Source of the DNA: an uncultured Thiotrichales bacterium
GTDB lineage: Bacteria; Pseudomonadota; Gammaproteobacteria; UBA4575
Reading direction: 5' to 3'
Assembly (NCBI GenBank): GCA_964636225.1
Contig: CAZWQM010000005.1
Location: forward strand, 40,668-104,667
Length of the DNA stretch: 64,000 nt
The position numbers were made by a program, and so were the translations under genes. Shown piece after piece: positions 2,845 through 54,674 of the stretch. The notes under the pieces are model-generated. The model was not told where the DNA came from. It made no database searches and worked only from the letters and a program-made list of their open reading frames with translations. Every line of letters begins with the position of its first letter. Positions within the stretch are counted from its first letter, which is position 1.

Positions 2845-3570
2845 TCACATAAGCCCATGTTCCGCCATAGAAAAGGTTTCTTCTCCAACAATGATGTGAT
2901 CTAGTACATGCACATCAATTAAGTTTAGTGCCTGATTTATTTTATGAGTAATCTATTTATCAGCTTCACTTGGCTGGTAGTTTCCCGAAGGATGATTGTG
3001 CGCAAGAATTACTTTCGCAGTATTGGTTCTTAACACCAACTTGACGATCTCACGGGGATACACACTTGCATTATTAATCCTGCCTTTAAACAATTCTTCA
3101 TAGCGGATTAACTGGTTCCGTGTATCCAGCAGCAAGCATGCAAATACCTACGAGGTGTAATCACGCATTTTCGATAATAAAAATCTTGCTGCCTGTTTTG
3201 AACTAGTGAATTCAGGTTTTGACTCCAGTTGTTGCATCAGACTACGCTGTGCAATCGTACTTATCGCTAAAATCTGAGTGAATTTTGCCGGCCCAAGCCC
3301 TTTGATAGCCCGTAATTGTTCACTCTCACATTTCAGCAGACCACGAATACCACCAAATTGATCCAGTAATTCCTGTGCCAGTTCAAGCACACTTTTTCCT
3401 GCCAGTCCGGTTCTTAAAATAATGGCCAAAAGCTCTGCATCGGATAATATCTCCGCACCCTCCTTAATGAGTCTCTCACAAGGGCCATTTTTTGTGACCA
3501 ATTTTGTTTCATTGACTATAAAAAACTGAAGTCGGGTACACGCCGAAAGGATTGATTCTGGTACACTCAT
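2845..3570 (-). pseudogene. radC: radC (JAB/MPN-domain DNA repair protein) interrupted by two in-frame TAG codons
   Basis: ORFs 3148..3570 and 2953..3135 are in the same frame. Reading through TAG (3148-3150) and TAG (2953-2955) gives continuous RadC-like sequence: ...[106 protein letters not shown]. The HNHPSG (JAMM) motif and C-terminal tail are conserved. Confidence 0.75.
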
Positions 3571-5287: not shown

Positions 5288-7548
<2,261 letters not shown>

Positions 7549-8234: not shown

Positions 8235-8873
8235 TTATTGAATGCCATAAGTTTGTCGATAGGATGTTAATTGTTCCAGTTGGCCGGAGAGGTCTTCACG
8301 AGATCTGGTGTAATCCAGCAAATCATCCAGTTTCGCAATGGCTATTACCGGAATTTTATAGGCGCGTTCGACTTCCTGAATCGCACTACCCCCATTAGGC
8401 CCTTTTTCCTGGCGGTCGAGTGCCACCACTACAGCGGCAGGCTCTGCTCCCGCCTCTTGTATCAGTTCCATACTCTCCCGGATGGCAGTGCCTGCGGTAA
8501 TCACATCATCTACAATAACCACACGTCCAGCGAGTGGTGCACCAATCAACTTTCCAGCTTCACCATGGGTTTTGGCCTCTTTGCGATTAAAACTGACACT
8601 CACTGAACGTTGATACTGGCTGTCCAGTGCAATCGCAGTGGCTGTGGCGAGCGGTATCCCTTTATAAGCCGGGCCAAACAATAGATCAAATGCGATGTTG
8701 GATTGCATCAGTGCGGCTGCATAATATTGACCCAAAACATTAAATGCAGATCCCTGATTAAATTTTCCGGCATTAAAAAAATAGGGACTAAGCCGTCCAG
8801 ATTTAAGTGTAAATTCACCGAATTGCAAGGCATCATTTTCAAGTGCAAATTGGACAAAAGAAGAAGCTTTCAT
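8235..8873 (-). CDS. pyrE: Orotate phosphoribosyltransferase
   Basis: 212 aa with the PRTase motif VVIVDDVITAGTAI. Confidence 0.9.
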   Translation of the reverse strand: MKASSFVQFALENDALQFGEFTLKSGRLSPYFFNAGKFNQGSAFNVLGQYYAAALMQSNIAFDLLFGPAYKGIPLATATAIALDSQYQRSVSVSFNRKEAKTHGEAGKLIGAPLAGRVVIVDDVITAGTAIRESMELIQEAGAEPAAVVVALDRQEKGPNGGSAIQEVERAYKIPVIAIAKLDDLLDYTRSREDLSGQLEQLTSYRQTYGIQ

Positions 8874-9739: not shown

Positions 9740-11104
9740 ATGAATAGCTGGGCACAGTCATTTCAAATATATCTACACCCAAAAATGCTCGCCATGCTCG
9801 TATTGGGTTTTTCTGCTGGATTACCTTTGCTGCTGGTGTTTGGTACACTTTCTTTCTGGCTACGCAAGGAGGGGATTGATAGAAGCACTATTGGTTATAT
9901 TTCCTGGGTGGCCGCCTTATACGGCGTTAAATTTTTATGGTCTCCTCTGGTTGATAGATTACCTCTACCCTTGTTATCGAAATATATGGGGCAACGACGC
10001 AGCTGGATGTTCATCGCCCAGCTTGGCGTACTATCAGGCTTATTGCTGCTAGGGACAGTTAATCCTCAGGACCAACTATCGCAATTAGTCATATTTGCTT
10101 TATTGGTCGCTTTTTTTTCGGCTACACAAGACATTGCTCTAGATGCCTGGCGTATCGAATCTGCACCCAGCGAAGAACAGGGCGCCATGGCCGGGACTTA
10201 TCAATTGGGCTATCGCTTAGGCATGTTATTGGCCGGAGGCGGGGCTTTTTCGCTTGCACATTTTTATAGCTGGAATACTGCCTATACTGTTATGGGCTTT
10301 AGCATGCTGACAGGGTTAATTACTACTTTGATTGTATCTGAACCCCTACGATGCGGATCTACACAGACGGCTACACAAGAATCCGCCGTGATTAATTTTC
10401 TTCAGTGCTCTACCACGCTTCCAAAACCTTTACGCAATAGTGTTGCCTGGTTTTTGGCTGCCGTTGTTTGTCCATTTACTGATTTCTTTAAACGTAATGG
10501 TATCTTTTCAATTGTTATTCTACTGTTTATCGGCACTTTCAGATTAAGCGACATTACCATGGGTGTGATGTCCGGGCCATTTTATGCAGATATGGGTTAC
10601 AGTGAACTGCAGGTAGGTTTGATCTCAAAAACATTTGGCATTGGTGTCACTATCGCAGGCGCCTTGCTCGGCGGCGTGCTGGTCATGCGTTGGGGGATTT
10701 TAAAAGTATTATTGATTGCGGGTATATTAGTCGTTGTTACAAATCTCGTATTTGTCTGGCTTGCTACCCAGGAACCTAAAACCTGGCTTCTTGCGATTGT
10801 CATCACTGCCGATAATTTAAGCGGTGGTATTGCCGGGACTGTATTTATTGCCTACCTCTCAAGCTTGACCAATAAAATATATACGGCCACTCAATATGCA
10901 CTACTAAGTTCAATCATGCTGCTACCTGCAAAATTTTTAGGCGGTTTTTCAGGAAAAATTGTTGACGATTATGGCTATATTAACTTTTTCATTTATGCTG
11001 CCTGCTTAGGATTGCCTGCCATACTTCTTGCGCTTTATCTCGCAACTCGCAAAAGCATAAGCAGTCTTAGCTTCGATAAGCCAACCTCTCAGGAGCTTAA
11101 ATAA
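9740..11104 (+). CDS. MFS transporter, AmpG-family muropeptide permease-like
   Basis: 454 aa with multiple transmembrane segments and AmpG-like N-terminal motifs (GLPLLLVFGTLSFWLRKEGIDRSTIG). Confidence 0.75.
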   Translation: MNSWAQSFQIYLHPKMLAMLVLGFSAGLPLLLVFGTLSFWLRKEGIDRSTIGYISWVAALYGVKFLWSPLVDRLPLPLLSKYMGQRRSWMFIAQLGVLSGLLLLGTVNPQDQLSQLVIFALLVAFFSATQDIALDAWRIESAPSEEQGAMAGTYQLGYRLGMLLAGGGAFSLAHFYSWNTAYTVMGFSMLTGLITTLIVSEPLRCGSTQTATQESAVINFLQCSTTLPKPLRNSVAWFLAAVVCPFTDFFKRNGIFSIVILLFIGTFRLSDITMGVMSGPFYADMGYSELQVGLISKTFGIGVTIAGALLGGVLVMRWGILKVLLIAGILVVVTNLVFVWLATQEPKTWLLAIVITADNLSGGIAGTVFIAYLSSLTNKIYTATQYALLSSIMLLPAKFLGGFSGKIVDDYGYINFFIYAACLGLPAILLALYLATRKSISSLSFDKPTSQELK

Positions 11105-11861
11105 TGTTTGGCTTTATTCACAAAAAATTTTATTTCTCTTTATTTATCGTTCTAAGTTTACTTTTTTTTATAGCCTGACGCCCGTTTATGCTGGCTGGTT
11201 TGATAAAATCAAAGATGTCATCAATTCAGAATCATCAAGCTCTACGTCAAGTACATCCCTCACTGACAATGAAATTGCGGATGCATTAAAAGAAGCGCTC
11301 AGTGTAGGTTCCAGTAATGTAGTCAGTCAGCTTAGTGCTCCAGGTGGATTTAATCTGGATTCAAATATACATATTCCTTTACCGGAATCGTTGCAAACTG
11401 TGCAGAAAACTATGAACAAATTCGGCATGGGAAGCTCGTTAAACAATCTTGAAAACAAATTGAACGAAGCAGCCGAAATCCCCACCGAAAAAGCTAAACC
11501 TTTATTTCTAGATGCGATTAAGCAAATGACGTGGAGTGATGTAAAATCTATTTTGAATGGACCGGATGATGCAGCGACTCAATATTTCAAGGGGAAAATG
11601 TCATCACCTTTAACCGCCGAAATGTAGCCCATAGTAGACAACAGTTTGAGCGAAGTAGGCTCAATTAATACATATAATGATGTTATGGGTAAATATAAAT
11701 CTTTGCCTTTGGTGCCGGATGTTCAGGCAGATTTGAGTCAGCATGTTTTAAGCAAAGGTATCGATGGAATATTCTATTATCTGGCCAAAGAGGAAAAAGC
11801 AATTAGAGATAATCCGGCTAAAAGAACAACCGATTTATTGAAAAAAGTTTTTGCAAAATAG
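11104..11861 (+). pseudogene. DUF4197-family periplasmic protein, disrupted by a frameshift at a T8 tract and an in-frame TAG
   Basis: The ATG at 11104 encodes a signal-peptide-like MFGFIHKKFYFSLFIVLSLLFFIA and then stops. The next frame continues from the T8 run (11162-11169) as ...YSLTPVYAGW...DNEIADALKEALSVGSSNVVSQL..., which is DUF4197-like. This runs into ORFs 11391..11627 and 11646..11861, which share a frame and are split only by TAG at 11625-11627 (...PLTAEM*PIVDNSLSEVGS...). Confidence 0.65.
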
Positions 11862-37844: not shown

Positions 37845-39674
37845 ATGTGTGGAATCGTAGGTGCAATCTCACAAAGAGATATATCAGGGATATTGCTGGA
37901 AGGTTTAAAACGACTAGAGTATCGAGGTTATGATTCTGCCGGTATGGCAGTATTAAATAAAGGTTTGCTGGAACGTATAAGACGTCAAGGTAAAGTCTCT
38001 GAATTGGGAGATGCCTTACAGGCATCTAAACTTTCCGGAATAGTTGGAATTGCGCATACGCGTTGGGCTACACATGGTGTGCCATCAGAATATAATGCGC
38101 ATCCACATATTTGTAAAGGTCGTGTGGCGATTGTCCATAATGGAATAATAGAAAATTATCAGGAACTGCGTGAGATGCAGTCCAAAGCCGGTTTTAAGTT
38201 CACTTCAGATACAGATACAGAGGTGATTGCGCACCAGATTGTTTTGTATCTTGAAAAGGGCGATTCTTTATTTTTTGCCGTGCAAAACGCTGTTAAAGAT
38301 TTAAAAGGTGCGTATGCCCTGGGCGTAATTGACAGAACGGATGAAGAAAGAATCATCGCTGCCCGCAGTGGAAGTCCGTTGGTTATTGGTGTCGGAGAAA
38401 ATGAAAACTTTATTGCTTCCGACGTTCATGCCCTATTAAAAGAGACACAGAAATTTATTTATCTGGAAAATGGTGATATAGCCGAAATTACACACGATAA
38501 AATATCTATATTTGATCTTAATGGTCAGTTTGTCGAAAGAGAAATCAAGGTCAGCAAACAAAGTTCAGATGCCGCCGAGAAAGGTGAGTATGCGCACTAC
38601 ATGCTCAAAGAAATTTATGAGCAGCCTCGTGCGATCGCAGATACACTGGAAGGACGAGTGTTAAATGGCCGTGTTATGGATGAAATTCTTGGTCCTAAAG
38701 CAAAGTCCATTCTAGACAGCACTCAATCCATCCAAATTATTGCATGTGGAACAAGTTACCATGCCGGGTTGGTAGCAAAATACTGGTTTGAAGAAATAGC
38801 TGGTATTCACTGCCATGTCGAGGTTGCCAGTGAATTTCGTTATCGCAAACATGTTGTTAGACCGGGAACTTTGTTTGTAACGATTTCCCAGTCAGGCGAA
38901 ACAGCGGACAGTCTGGCCGCATTACAGCAGTCGAGTTCTGAAAATTATGTCGGATCATTAGTGATTTGTAACGTGCCTGAGAGCTCACTAGTTAGAGAAT
39001 CCGATTTGGCGTTGATGACACATGCGGGTCCTGAAATTGGTGTGGCATCCACCAAAGCATTTACCACCCAACTGGTTGCGTTGATGATGCTGGTCATATT
39101 AGTAGGTCGACGAAATGGTCTTCATCCCGAAATGGAAAAAATTCTGGTAGAACAACTCTTAAATCTGCCAGTACGCATTAATAAAGCGCTTTCACTTAAT
39201 GAGCCAATCAAAAAGCTGGCACAACTTTATAAAGATAAGCAACATGCGCTGTTTTTAGGTCGTGGATCTCATCATCCGATTGCGATGGAAGGTGCATTGA
39301 AGCTAAAAGAAATATCGTATATTCATGCCGAGGCTTATGCAGCCGGTGAACTTAAGCATGGACCTATTGCACTGGTTGACAAAAATATGCCCGTGATTAC
39401 TGTGGCGCCAAAAAACGAGTTGTTGGAAAAACTAAAGTCAAATATAGAAGAAGTGCGAGCACGAGGTGGTGAATTACATGTGTTTGCAGATATGGGTTGT
39501 GCATTCAAAGCCGAAAGTGGTATGCAGTTGATTGAACTGGATGCGCCTGAAAATGCGGTGGCACCTATTATCTTTACCATCCCTTTACAATTGCTTGCTT
39601 ATCACGTGGCTGTGCTTAAAGGTACTGATGTGGATCAACCGAGAAATCTTGCCAAATCTGTCACAGTCGAGTGA
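37845..39674 (+). CDS. glmS: Glutamine--fructose-6-phosphate aminotransferase
   Basis: 609 aa with an N-terminal MCGIVG, two SIS domains and a C-terminal VE. Confidence 0.95.
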
Positions 39675-39751
39675 TTCTACCAGTTTACATTTGATTTATT
39701 CGCTCAACCTCTAATGAAAAATTTTTAACCAGACAAGAAAGCGATAAACAT

Positions 39752-41185
39752 ATGTCGATAGGAAAAGAAGTCTCCAGTTCTATTCGATGGATGGCCGGCA
39801 TGCGAATGGTCAGCCAGGTGTTCACTTGGGCAGCCACATTAATTGTCATAAGATTATTGTCGCCCGAGGATTATGGCCTTATGACTCTGGCTGCCGTAGT
39901 AATTGGCTTACTGGATATTCTTGATGACATGGGCCTCGCTTCAACGCTTGTCCAAAAAAAGCAGACATCTGATGAATTTGTGCGGCAAATTTTTGGAATG
40001 CTTTTCATCTTTAACACTGGCTTTTATGTATTGCTGTTTGTCACTGCGCCATGGGTGGCAGATTTCTTTGGTGATGAACGATTATCCGTGATCATTCAAA
40101 TACTAGGTCTGCAGACAATAATTCGTATTTTTTTCTATATACCTAATGCCATCATGCGCAGAAACATGCAGTTTAAATCTGTGTCGTTGATTAAATTTAG
40201 CGCTGTTGTTACACAAAGTATGACAATACTTCTGTTTGCTTATTTAGGTCACGGTGTATGGTCTTTGGTGTACGGCGGTCTTGTCTATACTGGTGTGCAA
40301 ACTATAGGAGCCATGCTGGCATCTAATTATTTTCGCCGGCCAAGTTTTTCCTTTTAAGGTATCGGAGAGGCTTTAAGTTTTGGCGGGTTAATTACAGTTC
40401 ATCGTTTTATGTTTTATTTCTACCATGCGATAGGTTCGGTAATTCTGGGTAAGGTAGATGGACAAAAAGCACTGGGCTACTACTCGGTTGCTATGCAAAT
40501 TGCCCATTTACCCATGGAGAAATTTATGATGATTCTGAATGAAGTGGGTTTCTCGGCTTTTTCAACTATTCAGGATAATCAGAAAAAAATGAATGAATTG
40601 TTATGCAAGGCGGTACGCTTGCTGGGAGTGGTGGTATTTCCTGTATTTATGGGTATTTCGTGTACTTCTCCTGAACTGGTTGCGGTGTTATTAGGCGATA
40701 AATGGACTCCCGTCGCAATACCGTTGCAGATTGTCAGTGCAGTGATGGCACTTAAAATGATGAACATCACTGATCCATTATTATTTGCCATGGGTCGCCC
40801 CGATGTTGGAGTTAAAGCGCTGGCTATAGGATGTGTCATTATGCCAATAGCATTTTACATCGGTTCACACTGGGGTGTTCTGGGCATGTCGATATCATGG
40901 CTGATAGCCTATCCTCCGTATTTTTATATATCCATGAAGATTGTGTTAGCGACTATCGGCATGAAATTCAGTACCTACTTACGTGAATTTACATTCCCGG
41001 CAATTTTCAGCGGTGTTATGTATATCATGGTCATTATCGCCAGAGAGGTGATTAGTCCACATGTTGGAAACACAGCACTGGAATTAGTAATGCTGATATT
41101 TGTAGGCGCAGTAACCTATACAGTACTGGTACTGGCTTTTCAACGTGACATCGTCAAACAACTATATGTGATGGTAAGACATTAA
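39752..41185 (+). pseudogene. Wzx-like oligosaccharide flippase (MOP/PST family) interrupted by one in-frame TAA
   Basis: ORFs 39752..40357 and 40409..41185 are in the same frame (offset 657 = 3x219). Reading through TAA at 40355-40357 gives ...NYFRRPSFSF*GIGEALSFGGLITVHRFMFYFYHAIGSVILGKVDGQKALGYYSVAM..., a contiguous PST-family flippase of about 478 aa. The stop sits where homologues have K in ...F(S/L)KGIGE. Confidence 0.7.
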
Positions 41186-41333
41186 AACAATGTGTGTGAC
41201 GCGCTAAATGTAGGCATCGAAATGACAATGCAGTGCATAGCTTAAAAAACAACCCCTTCACTTTAGGAAACAATTAAAAAGTAGTATAAGTTAAGTCAGC
41301 AAAGTTTCATTTGCAGTGTAAAAGGAGCACTTG

Positions 41334-41621
41334 TTGGCCAAGCGACCGGAAATAGAAGATGAAGAAATTCAGGAATGGGTACAGGCGCTACATGATGTGC
41401 TGGAGCTTCACAAAATAAAATAGCCGGTTTCGTTGGCGATATGTTAAAAGTCAAAGTTAAAGCCCCAGCAAGAGAGGGTAAAGCCAATTTGGCGGTGATA
41501 GATTTATTATCGCTGGAATATAAAGTGCCAAAAAATAACATTTCGCTGATATCGGGCACGACATCAAACTTAAAAATAGTAGAAATTAAAGAAGGTCAGG
41601 CTAAAGATAAAAGGCTATGAT
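41334..41621 (+). pseudogene. YggU/DUF167-family remnant (frameshifted or internally deleted)
   Basis: Frame 1 gives (L)AKRPEIEDEEIQEWVQALHDVLELHKIK*. Frame 3 continues IAGFVGDMLKVKVKAPAREGKANLAVIDLLSLEYKVPKNNISLISGTTSNLKIVEIKEGQ*, matching the DUF167 core (G.HGD.LKV.V.APP.EGKAN). The frames switch at about 41415-41425 and several N-terminal core residues are missing. Confidence 0.45.
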
Positions 41622-42103
41622 TTGCGTACGCGAATAATCACGTCTATATCATCCAGCACAGTGTCATGAGGCAATTTGGGTAATTGCTCCAGATCGACCT
41701 GAAGGGCCGAGATATCCTCAAGTTTTCCGCTGTCCACATGGTACAAGTGATGATGTTTTTCAAGATTTGTGTCGTAAAACACCTTGTTGGCTTCGATGAT
41801 AACTTCATGTAGCAGGCCTTTTCTGGCGAACAGACCTAGCGTATTGTAGACAGTTGCCTTGGACACCTCATCGCTGTCTTTATTAACCATAGCCAATACC
41901 TGCTCTGCAGAGACATGCTGTGCCTTGGCAAATAATGCTTCAGCAATACGCATACGTTGGTGAGTGGGTGTTATTCCACAGCAACGTAAGCGCGCAGAAA
42001 CTTGCTCACTGGTAGGGCTGATATTTTCAGGCGTCAGATTCATGACCGCATTATAATCAGAATTTAGAATAAGTCTATTTTGTAGGTCACATGTCCTGCA
42101 CAA
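41615..42103 (-). CDS. Fur-family metal-responsive transcriptional regulator (start uncertain; probably the internal MNLTPENISP...)
   Basis: It has a winged helix (ATVYNTLGLFARKGLL) and an HHHLYH metal site, but lacks the C-terminal Cys cluster. Confidence 0.7.
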   Translation of the reverse strand: MCRTCDLQNRLILNSDYNAVMNLTPENISPTSEQVSARLRCCGITPTHQRMRIAEALFAKAQHVSAEQVLAMVNKDSDEVSKATVYNTLGLFARKGLLHEVIIEANKVFYDTNLEKHHHLYHVDSGKLEDISALQVDLEQLPKLPHDTVLDDIDVIIRVRKS

Positions 42104-42147
42104 AGAAAGAACAAATCCGCGAAGTTATCAGCCAAACACGCAATCCA

Positions 42148-43212
42148 TTAACTGGGGTGTTTATGGTGGGTGAATTTGCGTTCCTGATCGTCTAGCGAGG
42201 CACCATTGTTACATATCCACTGGGTAATAATCTCAGCAGAAGTTGGGGCCATGGCAACGCCATATCTGAAATGACCGCAATTCAGGTATAGACCCCGAAT
42301 CGTCTGATGCGGGCCAATCGTAGGGATATTATTCATGGTCGCTGGCCTTAATCCTGCCCATTGGTGGGAAATAGGAAAATCGCGTAGTTCAGGAATCATT
42401 GAGATGGCACTGTTATACAATTCCTGGCGTGCCGAGAGAGTAGTACTTTTATCATATCCTGTGTTTTCCAGTGTGCTGCCAGAAATAATCAATCCGTCTT
42501 TTCTTGGAATTATATACAGCCCATTTTTATATTTTATAGTCTTTAACAATCCAGGTTGTGCTTGTATGGCAACAAGTTGCCCTTTCACAGGCTTCACCGA
42601 TGGCAAAGATATATTGGGGTTTGATGTTGACAGTTCAGAAAGCCATGCACCATTGGCACATAAGACTTTATCGGTTTTGATACGGCCTGCGGATGTATCC
42701 ACGCCAATAATTCGATTGTTTTGCAGTAATAACTGACTGGCTGAAGTGTGAGTAAGAAGGGTGAGGTTATTCTCAGTTAAATACTTTACAAGAGCTGAAA
42801 TTAATCTGGGCGTTCTGACTTGTGCAATATCAGGCAAGTGAAACTGCTGCTGGCTAGGTGTGCTTGAGTGAATACGCAGATTGTTGTGAGTGCACCAGGT
42901 AGTAATTGTTTCATCCAGAAAATCATATACCGTCAGGCCACAGTTCCAGAATTCAATATCTATCCCGGTATCATGATGTAACTTTTGGGAAAGTTGTTGG
43001 TAGGATTTGGCAGAGTTGGTAGTTAGGTAGAAAACTTGTGAGTCGTAATGCCACGGTAGAAGAGGTGCAAGTATGCCACCAGCAACCCAGGAACTTTCGT
43101 GACCCAGGGACCCTCGCTCGATAATTGTTAAATTAACACCTCGTTGTGTCAAAAGATAGGCGCTGTAGAGGCCAATAATACCTCCGCCAATAATTACTAG
43201 GTCTGAATTCAC
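42148..43212 (-). CDS. thiO: FAD-dependent glycine oxidase (ThiO-like)
   Basis: 354 aa DAO family with an N-terminal VIIGGGIIG dinucleotide fold. thiS and thiG lie 1.6 kb downstream. Confidence 0.6.
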   Translation of the reverse strand: MNSDLVIIGGGIIGLYSAYLLTQRGVNLTIIERGSLGHESSWVAGGILAPLLPWHYDSQVFYLTTNSAKSYQQLSQKLHHDTGIDIEFWNCGLTVYDFLDETITTWCTHNNLRIHSSTPSQQQFHLPDIAQVRTPRLISALVKYLTENNLTLLTHTSASQLLLQNNRIIGVDTSAGRIKTDKVLCANGAWLSELSTSNPNISLPSVKPVKGQLVAIQAQPGLLKTIKYKNGLYIIPRKDGLIISGSTLENTGYDKSTTLSARQELYNSAISMIPELRDFPISHQWAGLRPATMNNIPTIGPHQTIRGLYLNCGHFRYGVAMAPTSAEIITQWICNNGASLDDQERKFTHHKHPS

Positions 43213-43389
43213 GTTACGCTAAGGTTGATTTCAAAAGTGAATATATATTCGTTTTTACAATGACATGAAGTAATGATTCAATTCGTAAAACATTGTTAAA
43301 TATCCGTAACATTTAATGCATTCAAATAATAACACTGTGATAATTAATGTAGGTAGGAATTAAAAAATAGATTTAGAGGGCTACATACA

Positions 43390-43803
43390 GTGATTATAGC
43401 AAGGGAATTTAATAAAGATATTGTACCTAAAAAACTGACAGATTTACGCGCACCTGTGAAAGATCGAGCCAACCTGTTAGTAGATTTAACAGTGATGTCT
43501 CGCCAGGTAGGTTACTCAATAAGTAAAAAAGTATCCCGCTTTGGAGTGAATTATAATTTATGGCAGGTTTTGGTGACATTATGGAGCGAACATGCTGTGA
43601 CACCGGCTGCGGTTGCTCAATATCTTCAGGTCGAGCCTGCGACAATCAGCCGTTATCTGGATCAGCTTGAGTCTTTGGGTTACATCACACGCGAAAGAAG
43701 TAAAGTGGACCGGCGAGTAGTAGATGTTATTTTGACAACCAATGGTAATAAGGTTGTTAAAGCCGGCTTAAATGAACTCGACGAACTTGGCAAATATTTA
43801 TAA
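43390..43803 (+). CDS. MarR-family transcriptional regulator
   Basis: 137 aa winged helix (ATISRYLDQLESLGYITRERSKVDRR). It is divergent from thiO. Confidence 0.75.
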   Translation: MIIAREFNKDIVPKKLTDLRAPVKDRANLLVDLTVMSRQVGYSISKKVSRFGVNYNLWQVLVTLWSEHAVTPAAVAQYLQVEPATISRYLDQLESLGYITRERSKVDRRVVDVILTTNGNKVVKAGLNELDELGKYL

Positions 43804-44009
43804 CAAATTCAGATTTACATCTCCCTGCAACATGTGAAAGCCTTCCGCTTGAGTTTATCTTGGCGGCAGGACCTTTCATTTTCTATAGAGTTTGGCTGGA
43901 TATCTGCCATGGATATTAGCTTATTGCGATGTAATTAAGGTTTTTTGTATCAGACACTGGATATAATTGAGCACAGGTTTATCTCGTTTATTCCAGAAAA
44001 TGCAAGCAA

Positions 44010-44738
44010 ATGCTTTTTGGTTATCCTTCGGCACTGAGACGCATCGCTAAGTTCGCACATGATCATGCCATGGATTTAACACAAGTTGGAGTGAAAGTCG
44101 TTTTCGTAACTTCTGAATATCTTTATCCAGAGCAGCGTGAGTTGATACAAGACTGCTTTGGTTGTCCGGTTGCCAATGGTTATGGTGGCCGAGATGCAGG
44201 ATTTATCGCGCATGAGTGCCCATCAAAAAACATGCACATTACCGCAGAAGATATTATTGTTGAAATAATTGATCCGCAAGGCCAACCGGTTAAAACAGGC
44301 GAGTCCGGTGAAATTGTGGTGACGCATCTGGCAACAAGGGGGTATCCGTTTATACGCTACCGTACCGGGGATATAGGCATACTGGATGATAAACAATGTG
44401 AATGTGGACGGGGGCTGCCAATTTTAAAAGAAATACAAGGACGCACAACGGATTTTGTCGTTAGCCAAAACGGCAATGTGATGCACGGTTTGGCGTTGAT
44501 CTATGTATTGCGAGAAATAACCAGCATTCAAGAATTCAAAATTATTCAGGAAAGTAAAGACAGCACACGAATTTATTTAATTGTAGACAATGCCTTTAGT
44601 TCAGAGGATAAATATAAGATTGTCCAGGGATTCAAAACCCGCTTGGGTGAGCAGGTGGATATCATTATTGAATGCGTGGATACGATCCCCGCTGAAAAAT
44701 CTGGCAAGTTCAGGTATGTGATTAGTCATGCTATCTAA
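44010..44738 (+). pseudogene. 3' fragment (C-terminal ~240 aa) of a phenylacetate-CoA ligase / CapK / F390-synthetase-family adenylate-forming enzyme
   Basis: It contains the C-terminal subdomain motifs (YRTGDIG...GR..D). The expected ~200 aa N-terminal adenylation half is absent. Upstream there is only 206 bp of non-coding DNA and an in-frame TGA 45 bp before the ATG. Confidence 0.55.
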
Positions 44739-44856
44739 CGTTATCGACAACAGAAAACTCTTCAAGCCCATTATTAATTACCATGGTTAGCTGATACAGA
44801 TTCATCGAGATATCCTGTAAAATCATTCTTGATTAAACTAAGTTCAATTTACGACG

Positions 44857-48524: not shown

Positions 48525-49557
48525 ATGGGTATGAAATATAAATCATTAGGCAATACAAATCTAAGTGTCAGCAAAATATGCCTGGGCACAATGACTTTCG
48601 GTGAACAGAACACCGAGGCTCAGGCACATCAGCAACTCGACTATGCAATCACGCATGGAGTCAATTTTATTGATACTGCTGAGATGTATCCGGTGCCTCC
48701 ACGCCAACAAACCCAAGGTGCCACCGAAGCCTTTATCGGAAGCTGGTTGCATAAACGCCAATGCAGAGAAAAAGTCATTTTAGCCAGCAAAGTAGCTGGC
48801 CCTGGGATGGATGATGGAGTATTTGCGTAATGGCGCTCAATTGGTGCGAAGCCAAATGGAACAGGCGTTGCACGAAAGCCTTTTGCGCCTGCAAACCGAT
48901 TATATTGATCTTTACCAGATCCATTGGCCTGCACGTAATACTAATTTCTTTAGTAAGCTGGGTTATCAATATGATGAATCTGAATCCACTCCGATTGAAG
49001 AAACGCTGTCGGTACTTAATGATTTTGTTAACTCAGGTAAAGTACGTTACATTGGAATATCCAATGAAACTCCATGGGGTGTGAAAGAATATTTGAGGCT
49101 TTCAGAGCAGCGCCAATGGGCGCGAATTATTTCAATTCAAAACCCCTATAGCCTGCTCAATCGAACTTTTGAAGTCGGTCTGGCAGAATTTGCACACAGA
49201 GAATGCGTTGAGTTGCTGGCCTATTCCCCTCTAGGTTTTGGTGTGCTCACAGGGAAATATTTGAGAAACATTAATCTGAGTAAAGCACGCTTGAGTGTAT
49301 TTGAGGGTTATACGCGCTACAGTAATGAACAGGCAAAAAAAGCCACTGCAGCCTATGTTCAACTCGCGGATGACCACGGCTTGTCCGCTACACAAATGGC
49401 TTTGGCTTATGTGAATAGTCGGCCCTTTGTGGCAGCCAATATTATTGGTGCTACGTCCATTCAACAACTAGAAGAAAATATTCAGAGTGCAGAACTTGAG
49501 TTGTCAGCTGAGGTGCTTGAAGAAATTCACCGTAAAATTCCCAATCCTAGCCCTTAA
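48525..49557 (+). pseudogene. Tas-like NADP-dependent aldo/keto reductase, frameshifted
   Basis: ORF 48525..48830 (N-terminus, like E. coli Tas) and ORF 48811..49557 (the rest) are in different frames. The switch maps to the tandem GATGGATGATGG at 48806-48817. Deleting one GATG gives ...KVAGPGMMEYLRNGAQ... contiguous with the Tas alignment. Confidence 0.7.
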
Positions 49558-53787: not shown

Positions 53788-54467
53788 GTCGTTTCGTGTT
53801 GATTTTATGAAAAGCCGAGATTGTACCGCGTAAAAGCATGAATACGAGTATTTTTTCTGAATAGTCGTTAGTCTGAACGTAAAAATCCGGTTCTGTCATA
53901 CGAGTGTTTTAGGATCTGCCTGTAGACATCCATGTCCTGGCAGATTTCATCCTGAAACAAAAGATCATCCGTGAAATCTCAAGTCATTCGCCTAATTTAC
54001 CTTCCCTGATAAATTACGCTCTCCCTGAGCTTGAGTCTTGACTTCATTATTCCTTATACACTGCCCTAAAGTTGAACATTCTGTTTAACACTCTAGGTTG
54101 GGGCATCCTTGCCGAAGTACTGCTGGACTGAATTCCAATGAAGATTTCATTGTAAAGTCACGGCATGCATACACGAATGAAAGCACAGCAAGGGCTATGC
54201 CAATTTTGAATTGGTTGGTCTTCTGTATCTTGTTAACTAATTGATAAAATTAAAAATATAGATAACGAAAGGCTAAATTCAGAAGATAAACGTGTTATTG
54301 TAATCGTTTGTATTTGGGGGAGAAGCCAATCACGTTTAGCCATTTACTGACGCTATTTGACAATTTGTGGCGCTATAGATGACAGCGTGGGCAATTTACT
54401 TTATAAGAGCACTGCTTGGGAGCAAAAATTGTTTTTAGTTATTGCGGGGCAATAAATATGTTCATAA

Positions 54468-54515
54468 TGCACCAAATATGTGCAAAATAATCTATAAATG
54501 CACAAAATTTGTGCA
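54468..54515 (+). promoter_or_regulatory. Two tandem NtrC (NRI) enhancer-like sites upstream of glnA
   Basis: TGCACCAAATATGTGCA (54468-54484) and TGCACAAAATTTGTGCA (54499-54515) both fit TGCACC-N5-GGTGCA-type dyads. Their centres are 31 bp apart, at about -126 and -95 from the predicted start. This matches the E. coli glnAp2 geometry. Confidence 0.55.
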
Positions 54516-54575
54516 TATCTGGCTGTTTACTTGTGGTGCAAGATGCTAACTATTTGAATTCCCTGCCTGATTATG

Positions 54576-54592
54576 TGGCACATATCATGCTT
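54576..54592 (+). promoter_or_regulatory. Sigma-54 (-24/-12) promoter of glnA
   Basis: TGGCACatatcaTGCTT has GG (54577-78) and GC (54589-90) separated by exactly 10 nt. It lies about 85 bp upstream of the glnA ATG. Confidence 0.6.
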
Positions 54593-54674
54593 AACACCGG
54601 TCACAATACAAAACAAGAATAAACTCGGCCTAATTACTGGGTATTCAAATTTTTTAAATAATAGGAGTTTCTAA

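Follow-up and report, generated by a model that had tools for sequence, protein, structure and literature searches.

A flippase pseudogene and two deletion scars between glmS and thiS in an uncultured Thiotrichales bacterium

The interval between glmS and thiS in an uncultured Thiotrichales bacterium holds an interrupted gene for a Wzx-type polysaccharide flippase (wzx), together with remnants of aceE, yggU, a glycosyltransferase gene and a CapK/PaaK-like ligase gene. It lies within a stretch of 64,000 nucleotides, called the window in the following (GenBank assembly GCA_964636225.1, contig CAZWQM010000005.1, positions 40,668 to 104,667 of the forward strand). A first-pass annotation had taken the interval for the remains of a surface-polysaccharide locus that had entered the chromosome beside glmS and of which most had been deleted. 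We conclude, with a probability of about 0.85, that this part of the chromosome was inherited vertically and is actively decaying, and that it is not the relic of an insertion. Related species carry a shared gene order from glmS to thiS with an intact flippase and a complete polysaccharide operon, and the window departs from this order by one nonsense codon and by two internal deletion junctions at ~41404 and ~44007.

The features are collected in Table 1. Elements were called from a map of open reading frames (ORFs) and a Pfam scan, with family cutoffs from NCBIfam; gene names of unscanned ORFs were assigned from gene order and length.

Table 1. Features of the glmS-thiS interval and further pseudogenes in the window (positions count from the first letter of the window).
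Feature	Position	Strand	Basis
wzx pseudogene, MOP/PST-family polysaccharide flippase	39752-41185	+	477 sense codons plus one internal stop; PF13440 on both halves, single frame
In-frame TAA, wzx codon 202	40355-40357	+	3' of the N-terminal hydrophobic segments; variable alignment column
Native wzx-aceE intergenic region	41186-41330	+	aligns to L002 11438-11610
aceE (pyruvate dehydrogenase E1) 5' remnant, 25 codons; left side of deletion 1	41331-41405	+	alignment, tblastn
yggU (DUF167) 3' remnant; right side of deletion 1	41404-41620	+	DUF167 positions 11-76 of 76, 63.8 bits
Fur-family regulator (Irr/PerR-like), intact	41615-42103	-	Pfam FUR; full length compared with relatives
thiO (glycine oxidase), intact	42148-43212	-	DAO domain over full length; full-length alignment with relatives
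marR-family regulator, intact	43390-43803	+	Pfam MarR; full length compared with relatives
Native marR-GT4 intergenic region	43804-43999	+	palindrome and GGATATAAT box conserved with relatives; MAFFT with L008, L011-L015
First GT4 (TIGR03088 type), start plus two codons, ATG CAA G..; left side of deletion 2	44000-44007	+	aligned to the GT4 starts of relatives, ATGCAAGTCAAAGC
CapK/PaaK-like ligase 3' remnant, residues 216-458 of 458; right side of deletion 2	44008-44738	+	tblastn
radC pseudogene	2845-3570	-	in-frame TAG at 3148-3150 and 2953-2955; otherwise complete UPF0758_N and RadC JAB domain
DUF4197 pseudogene	11104-11861	+	TAG at 11625-11627 inside Pfam match 2-199 of 199
Aldo/keto reductase, split into ORFs of 101 and 248 amino acids	48525-49557	+	frameshift at ~48811-48830

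Ancestral gene order and the two deletion scars

Five uncultured marine gammaproteobacterial species share one order from glmS to the thiS block (contigs L012-L015 and L017; also as L002, L005 and L006). With protein lengths in amino acids, this order is atp operon-glmU-glmS-wzx (477-478)-aceE (886)-aceF (422-426)-two or three small minus-strand ORFs-fur-thiO-marR, followed by a first GT4 glycosyltransferase (397)-amidotransferase (630)-second GT4 glycosyltransferase (360)-ligase (458)-an optional ORF of 323-thiS-thiG-trmB-sulP. A sixth contig, L016, covers the part from fur to sulP only. The contigs were found by homologues of the read-through flippase and the species-representative genomes by a five-sequence ThiO alignment; all compared genomes are metagenome assemblies, those of the relatives from open-ocean and other metagenomes. 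In the relatives that share the order, the flippases are 63-81% and the ThiO proteins 48-57% identical to those of the window.

The genes between marR and thiS belong to a known kind of gene set. In L013, the first GT4 glycosyltransferase reaches 507 bits for TIGR03088 (glycosyltransferase of the PEP-CTERM/XrtA system, cutoff 409) and the amidotransferase 1094 bits for TIGR03108 (XrtA/PEP-CTERM system amidotransferase, cutoff 817). As both exceed their cutoffs, the genes missing from the window represent an exopolysaccharide module of the PEP-CTERM/EpsH-associated kind. In comparison with XrtA (EpsH)/PEP-CTERM-associated exopolysaccharide gene sets (Haft et al. 2006, PMC1569441), the intact relatives also carry the second GT4, the CapK/PaaK-like ligase and the Wzx-type flippase, while the window has just the flippase pseudogene and the 3' part of the ligase. 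The arrangement here is a compact four-gene operon, which is set apart from the flippase by aceEF, fur and thiO. Among the scanned ORFs of the window and the other DNA at hand, no exosortase XrtA and no PEP-CTERM protein was seen, the rest of the genome lying outside the data.

The flippase gene consists of two parts in the same frame (39752-40357 and 40409-41185) that are split solely by the TAA. PF13440 (Polysacc_synt_3, cutoff 23 bits) matches the N-terminal half at positions 1-170 with 144.2 bits and the C-terminal half at positions 191-291 with 91.3 bits, and the gene also scores above the cutoff for PF01943. The best NCBIfam matches are PRK10459, 'MOP flippase family protein', and TuaB, with the equivalog cutoff unreached (214 versus 273 bits). 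In length and hydrophobic profile the window copy agrees with Wzx/PST (MOP) flippases such as WzxC and TuaB and is not MurJ-like; it differs from them by the stop at codon 202, so that an uninterrupted frame of ~478 codons over both lobes is lost. In the relatives, an intact flippase of 477-478 amino acids is found in the same place directly after glmS, and the frames are open throughout. The read-through product is 73-81% identical to intact proteins of 478 amino acids, followed by a graded series down to ~40%. At the column of the stop the relatives have K, E, R, H, D or A, encoded by AAA, GAG, CGT and GCA among others, and the TAA would be one substitution away from AAA or GAA.

Upstream and downstream of the flippase the DNA is native. 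The spacer to glmS measures 77 nt and lies inside a continuous blastn match of window positions 39000-41398 to L002 9247-11675. Homology to the relatives thus extends unbroken across glmS, wzx and the wzx-aceE spacer and reaches into aceE, and from ~41404 the sequence is yggU. The aceE remnant translates to LLAKRPEIEDEEIQEWVQALHDVLE, which matches the aceE N-termini of L002, L005 and L006; by tblastn, AceE residues 1-25 are placed at 41331-41405 with 80% identity. Of an AceE with ~886 amino acids and PDH_E1 and transketolase domains, only these 25 N-terminal codons are left in the window. The yggU remnant forms an ORF from 41441 to 41620 that can be extended to ~41404 and overlaps the 3' end of fur. 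It has no start codon of its own and no full-length DUF167 match, its 5' end being replaced by the aceE remnant. Judged from this alignment, a single deletion removed aceE from codon 25, aceF and whatever preceded yggU. At the corresponding site, the intact relatives have no counterpart of yggU, and a homologue search with the YggU fragment found no close homologue besides itself. The residues AGAS before the YggU match were considered as part of yggU, which was rejected as the alignment assigns these bases to aceE. Public gene predictions contain an ORF of 87 amino acids on the minus strand (41296-41559), which crosses the junction of aceE and yggU, has no family match and is almost certainly spurious.

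At the right scar, the intergenic region downstream of marR is also native; within it, window positions 43900-43971 match L011 10048-10120 by blastn. At ~44007 this DNA and the ATG of the first GT4 gene run straight into codon 216 of the ligase. The ligase ORF spans 44010-44738 (243 codons) and does not share the frame of the GT4 start codon; tblastn places residues 216-458 of the relatives at 44007-44735 with 84% identity. An A-run at the joint allows microhomology of 3-4 nt. The scar is a single deletion of ~5 kb that extends over the two glycosyltransferase genes, the amidotransferase gene and the first 215 ligase codons. With CapK/PaaK-like adenylate-forming ligases of capsule and exopolysaccharide loci, the remnant shares CapK_C (PF27533, on record for an identical protein of 242 amino acids) and the distal AMP-binding region. 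It differs from them by the missing residues 1-215, which include a candidate nucleotide-binding motif, GGSSGQP, carried by L013. Its AMP-binding score of 29.3 bits lies under the cutoff of 29.9, the N-terminal adenylation domain is lacking, and no specific NCBIfam family cutoff is reached. No gene for a glycosyltransferase, wzy or wzz is present in the interval, as had been reported before, and neither a TIGR03088 glycosyltransferase nor a TIGR03108 amidotransferase is found in the window.

The interrupted flippase, the YggU 3' remnant and the ligase 3' part thus lie where the first-pass annotation had placed them. It had passed over the 25-codon aceE remnant, the GT4 start, both deletion scars and the former presence of aceEF between flippase and fur. 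Its description as surface-polysaccharide remains holds in that relatives have a four-gene operon between marR and thiS and an intact flippase; the insertion does not hold. Against its own reading it had named relatives with an intact flippase and no extra polysaccharide genes. Alignment of the relatives, the check that it had proposed, recovers the intact flippase and, after marR, the full set of polysaccharide genes between glmS and thiS.

Between the two scars, fur, thiO and marR have the full length of their counterparts in the relatives, in line with their earlier description as apparently intact. They are not the cargo of an island and are conserved residents lying between two separate losses; probably they are still intact because they have roles of their own. 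Fur is syntenic and 70-75% identical to the relatives, with 126 bits for NCBIfam IrrA, under the cutoff of 150. ThiO scores 246.8 bits for TIGR02352 (cutoff 250.8). MarR lies directly upstream of the polysaccharide operon in the relatives, and the window copy is 87-91% identical to theirs.

The inactivation is recent. A relative-rate test compared the window and ingroup genomes with the outgroups L015 and L017; it was based on protein distances since a DNA identity of ~70% implies saturated synonymous sites. The wzx halves have ratios of 1.00 and 1.09 and the ligase remnant one of 1.01, as compared with 1.02-1.13 for the intact genes except marR, and wzx retains 62 of 62 alignment-invariant columns. 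This lack of excess divergence in the wzx and ligase remnants argues for a recent inactivation, with purifying selection until very recently. Among the retained genes, only marR shows excess divergence on the window branch (12.1% versus 5.7% to the outgroups, a ratio of 2.14 that is based on small numbers), which may come from relaxed constraint after the loss of the adjacent operon.

The lesions recur in further assemblies. The TAA is found in three Logan runs: SRR15213107 (L001, identical over 8449 nt), SRR15213105 (L094, 38597-44037, 99.89%) and SRR15213108 (L096, 40306-41631, 100%). The junction of aceE and yggU is spanned by the same three contigs and by the ENA contig L095 (41154-41675, 99.6%), and the junction of GT4 and ligase by L094 alone, with 30 nt. 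Several Logan contigs terminate around the right junction, L001 at 43815 and L094 at 44037, with L007 beginning at 44008. The pattern at 44008 is as expected if a second allele joins the assembly graph there in the same samples.

Parallel erosion in the same and in other species

A second eroded allele is known from the same species. The contigs L091-L093 are 99.2-99.6% identical to the window at the DNA level. They join the position 45 nt after marR to ligase codon 36; their ligase contains a TAG, with an extra frameshift in L092 and L093. These contigs lack the intergenic DNA that is kept in the window and yet keep ligase DNA that is lost from it, so deletion alone could not have turned either allele into the other.

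On the left side of L091-L093, an unrelated sequence X is joined to the last 28 codons of yggU, with a microhomology of 7 nt in L091. In the JGI contig L097, X starts ~8 nt after the stop codon of glmS, and the part shared with L091 begins ~30 nt after it. Since X abuts glmS there, the strains of L091-L093 are probably without wzx altogether. In L097, positions 1-1171 form an AT-rich accessory patch with an ORF of 106 amino acids that has a weak Recombinase-domain match, followed by an HNH endonuclease gene. The first ~135 nt of this patch are 97.8% identical to the left end of L091 (L091 1-136; L093 1-122) in spite of different glmS ends, which suggests that species share a mobile element at the glmS 3' flank.

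Two further lineages have lost the same genes in other ways. L011 keeps wzx codons 1-63 and an intact ligase, aceEF is gone, and residue 269 of the first GT4 is joined to residue 326 of the second GT4. On its reverse complement, ~700 extra bp lie between glmS and the wzx stump (6465-7163), with a lipoprotein-like ORF (MKLKLLILFLSFSLVSCGG...) that has no Pfam match. The L008/ERZ4113377 lineage has no wzx or aceEF, only an ORF of 52 amino acids between glmS and fur; residue 261 of the GT4 is joined to residue 328 of the amidotransferase, and the second GT4 and the ligase are further disrupted. In a neighbour-joining tree of ThiO, MarR, the C-terminal part of the ligase and ThiS (~800 aligned residues from four proteins, without bootstrap), L011 pairs with the intact L013 at a distance of 0.16, L008 falls among the intact L012-L014, and the window species stands on its own branch. 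Judged from these junctions and placements, independent events struck the operon four times or more and aceEF three times or more, with two different alleles in one species among them. No N characters occur in the window or the compared loci. A ligase of 271 amino acids (P0123) was considered as a further eroded lineage and rejected, as its contig L098 contains 8416 N and the truncation is a scaffold gap.

Flippase and operon go together in these genomes. Intact wzx occurs with an intact operon in all five genomes that cover both, and inactivated wzx with an eroded operon in three of three, which supports a functional link between wzx and the operon. Beyond that, the glmS-thiS interval could be a hot spot where the clade repeatedly sheds the XrtA-type operon, the flippase and aceEF together; we regard this extension as tentative and rather doubtful. 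If it is true and driven by selection, the joint loss would point to a changed lifestyle or metabolism, such as one without surface attachment and pyruvate oxidation, and would imply a functional link between pyruvate dehydrogenase and the polysaccharide.

The course of decay and alternative explanations

The ancestor would have carried glmS, the Wzx flippase, aceE-aceF, small genes (with yggU in the window lineage), fur, thiO, marR, the four-gene operon and thiS. With enzyme roles assigned from family knowledge, the GT4 enzymes would build a lipid-linked repeat unit, for which precursors could come from the UDP-GlcNAc pathway of the upstream genes glmU and glmS. Carboxyl groups would be modified by the amidotransferase and the CapK-like ligase, and transfer of the unit across the membrane would fall to Wzx. 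Three separate lesions account for the present state. A clean deletion of ~5 kb, with its ends in the third codon of the first GT4 and at ligase codon 216, took all sugar-building enzymes; a single-base change created the TAA in the flippase; and a deletion from aceE codon 25 into yggU removed pyruvate dehydrogenase E1 and E2. In the most economical order the operon was deleted first. The flippase would then have been useless because no lipid-linked repeat unit was left, so that the nonsense mutation in the idle gene was tolerated, and the aceEF deletion would be a third, separate event. In their present form the remnants are predicted not to work, with a flippase cut after its N-terminal half, a ligase without residues 1-215 and no glycosyltransferase.

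The ancestor could make an exopolysaccharide of the XrtA/PEP-CTERM type and oxidise pyruvate via AceEF, capacities that this group of marine bacteria lost very recently and more than once. In annotation, the fragments of flippase, ligase, YggU and aceE are best treated as pseudogenes and not taken as capsule or O-antigen capacity in metabolic reconstructions. Pseudogenes and deletion scars are an ordinary kind of feature, here in an undescribed organism; this is not a new molecular system, and the parallel loss is of modest evolutionary interest.

Several points weigh against the reading as a decaying resident locus. The data show the anatomy, junctions and synteny and the independence and recency of the events; the order of the events is a reconstruction, and either selection (cost, phage evasion, leaving surfaces) or drift with deletion bias may have been their cause. 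The ancestral content between aceF and fur in the window lineage is only partly reconstructed, with yggU absent there in the intact relatives. The exact sister of L008 is uncertain in a tree that is small and has no bootstrap. As the data comprise a window of 64 kb, aceEF, xrtA or other polysaccharide genes could survive elsewhere in the genome. With metagenome assemblies, an intact allele could also exist at low frequency in the same population.

This last point leads to the alternative that survives best, a polymorphism in which the eroded alleles are strain variants and the intact locus persists in the species as a variable trait, for example under phage pressure. Two deletion alleles do coexist at less than 1% divergence, and the position of contig ends, at the junction plus k-1, hints at a second path in these samples. 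Against this, every recovered contig of the same species is eroded, and among 5.8 billion searched proteins the intact wzx products reach 81% identity at most, with full-length ligases absent from the cluster at 90% identity or more. We consider persistence of an intact locus unlikely.

Much less probable is the horizontal acquisition of a polysaccharide island 3' of glmS that was then mostly deleted, with 39.7 and 44.8 kb as its borders. Tn7-type elements are known to insert at the 3' flank of glmS, and foreign DNA is found there in some genomes of the clade (L097, ~120 nt in L091 and L093, 700 bp in L011). In the window, this position is occupied by the native spacer. An island should be absent from the same site in relatives; in L012-L015 and L017, and partly in L016, the same order is present, from glmS over wzx to thiS in the five species, and housekeeping genes (aceEF, fur, thiO) are interleaved. 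The GC content of the patch is 0.415, as compared with 0.432 +/- 0.012 for 5-kb windows, and lies inside the window range of 0.411-0.467, so GC content, proposed as a check in the first-pass annotation, gives no foreign signal. At the supposed borders there is no integrase or tRNA gene, and flanking repeats are at chance level only. The actual scars are the junctions inside the interval.

It is likewise highly improbable that the flippase still works, either by read-through or recoding of the TAA or by two separate halves (N-lobe and C-lobe) that assemble in the membrane. According to a crude hydropathy scan, the stop at residue 202 lies roughly between the two MOP lobes, and both halves are otherwise well conserved. 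This conservation is explained by the recent mutation. TAA terminates 40 of 56 intact genes in the window (TGA 9, TAG 7) and is thus not reassigned; the next in-frame ATG (40409) follows 17 codons on, inside a conserved segment and with no Shine-Dalgarno-like sequence just upstream; and the glycosyltransferases that would make the substrate are all deleted. An artefact of sequencing or of chimeric binning or assembly is hardly credible: although all data are metagenomic and there are breaks of Logan contigs close to the right junction, the TAA reflects a substitution and not a homopolymer indel, stop and junctions recur in independent assemblies that span both joints, the sequences are free of N, and the breaks fit co-occurring alleles better than misjoins.

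Other pseudogenes and the rest of the window

The decay extends beyond the interval. In radC, the JAB-domain match (1-121 of 121) spans both TAG stops. The DUF4197 gene has, in addition to its TAG, a probable frameshift that separates the signal peptide, in the frame of 11104, from the body, in the frame of 11175. The aldo/keto reductase is also split in L092 and L093 of the same species and is intact in L008 (343 amino acids). Reassignment of stop codons, considered for the in-frame TAG and TAA in wzx, radC and DUF4197, was rejected: all three stops end intact genes, essential genes are uninterrupted, and frameshift pseudogenes exist as well.

With three further pseudogenes in 64 kb, the glmS-thiS patch is one case of wider gene decay in the genome. 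The recurrent erosion and these pseudogenes point to a deletion-biased, genome-wide reduction, possibly aided by selection against exopolysaccharide. With reductive genome evolution under relaxed selection, the window shares several nonsense and frameshift pseudogenes, deletion junctions and the parallel loss of surface-polysaccharide genes; host association or a small genome is not part of the evidence for this organism. The parallel losses and the pseudogenes flag the genome as a candidate for ongoing reduction.

The window as a whole is a housekeeping region with dnaA and a GC content of ~43%. Its gene sets are bioBF, gyrB-recF-dnaN-dnaA, yidC-mnmEG-parAB, the atp operon, glmUS, thiSG, glyQS and glnA-ntrBC. 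Over the 64 kb, the Rfam scan gave no family at gathering score, and no TPP riboswitch near thiO or thiS-thiG; the tRNA scan gave no tRNA gene. Two ORFs of 212 amino acids at 8235 and 12535 were considered as a repeat, which was rejected as self-blast was negative and they belong to different families. Upstream of glnA, a stretch of 887 nt (53788-54674), free of ORFs of at least 90 amino acids in any frame, has a GC content of 0.38.

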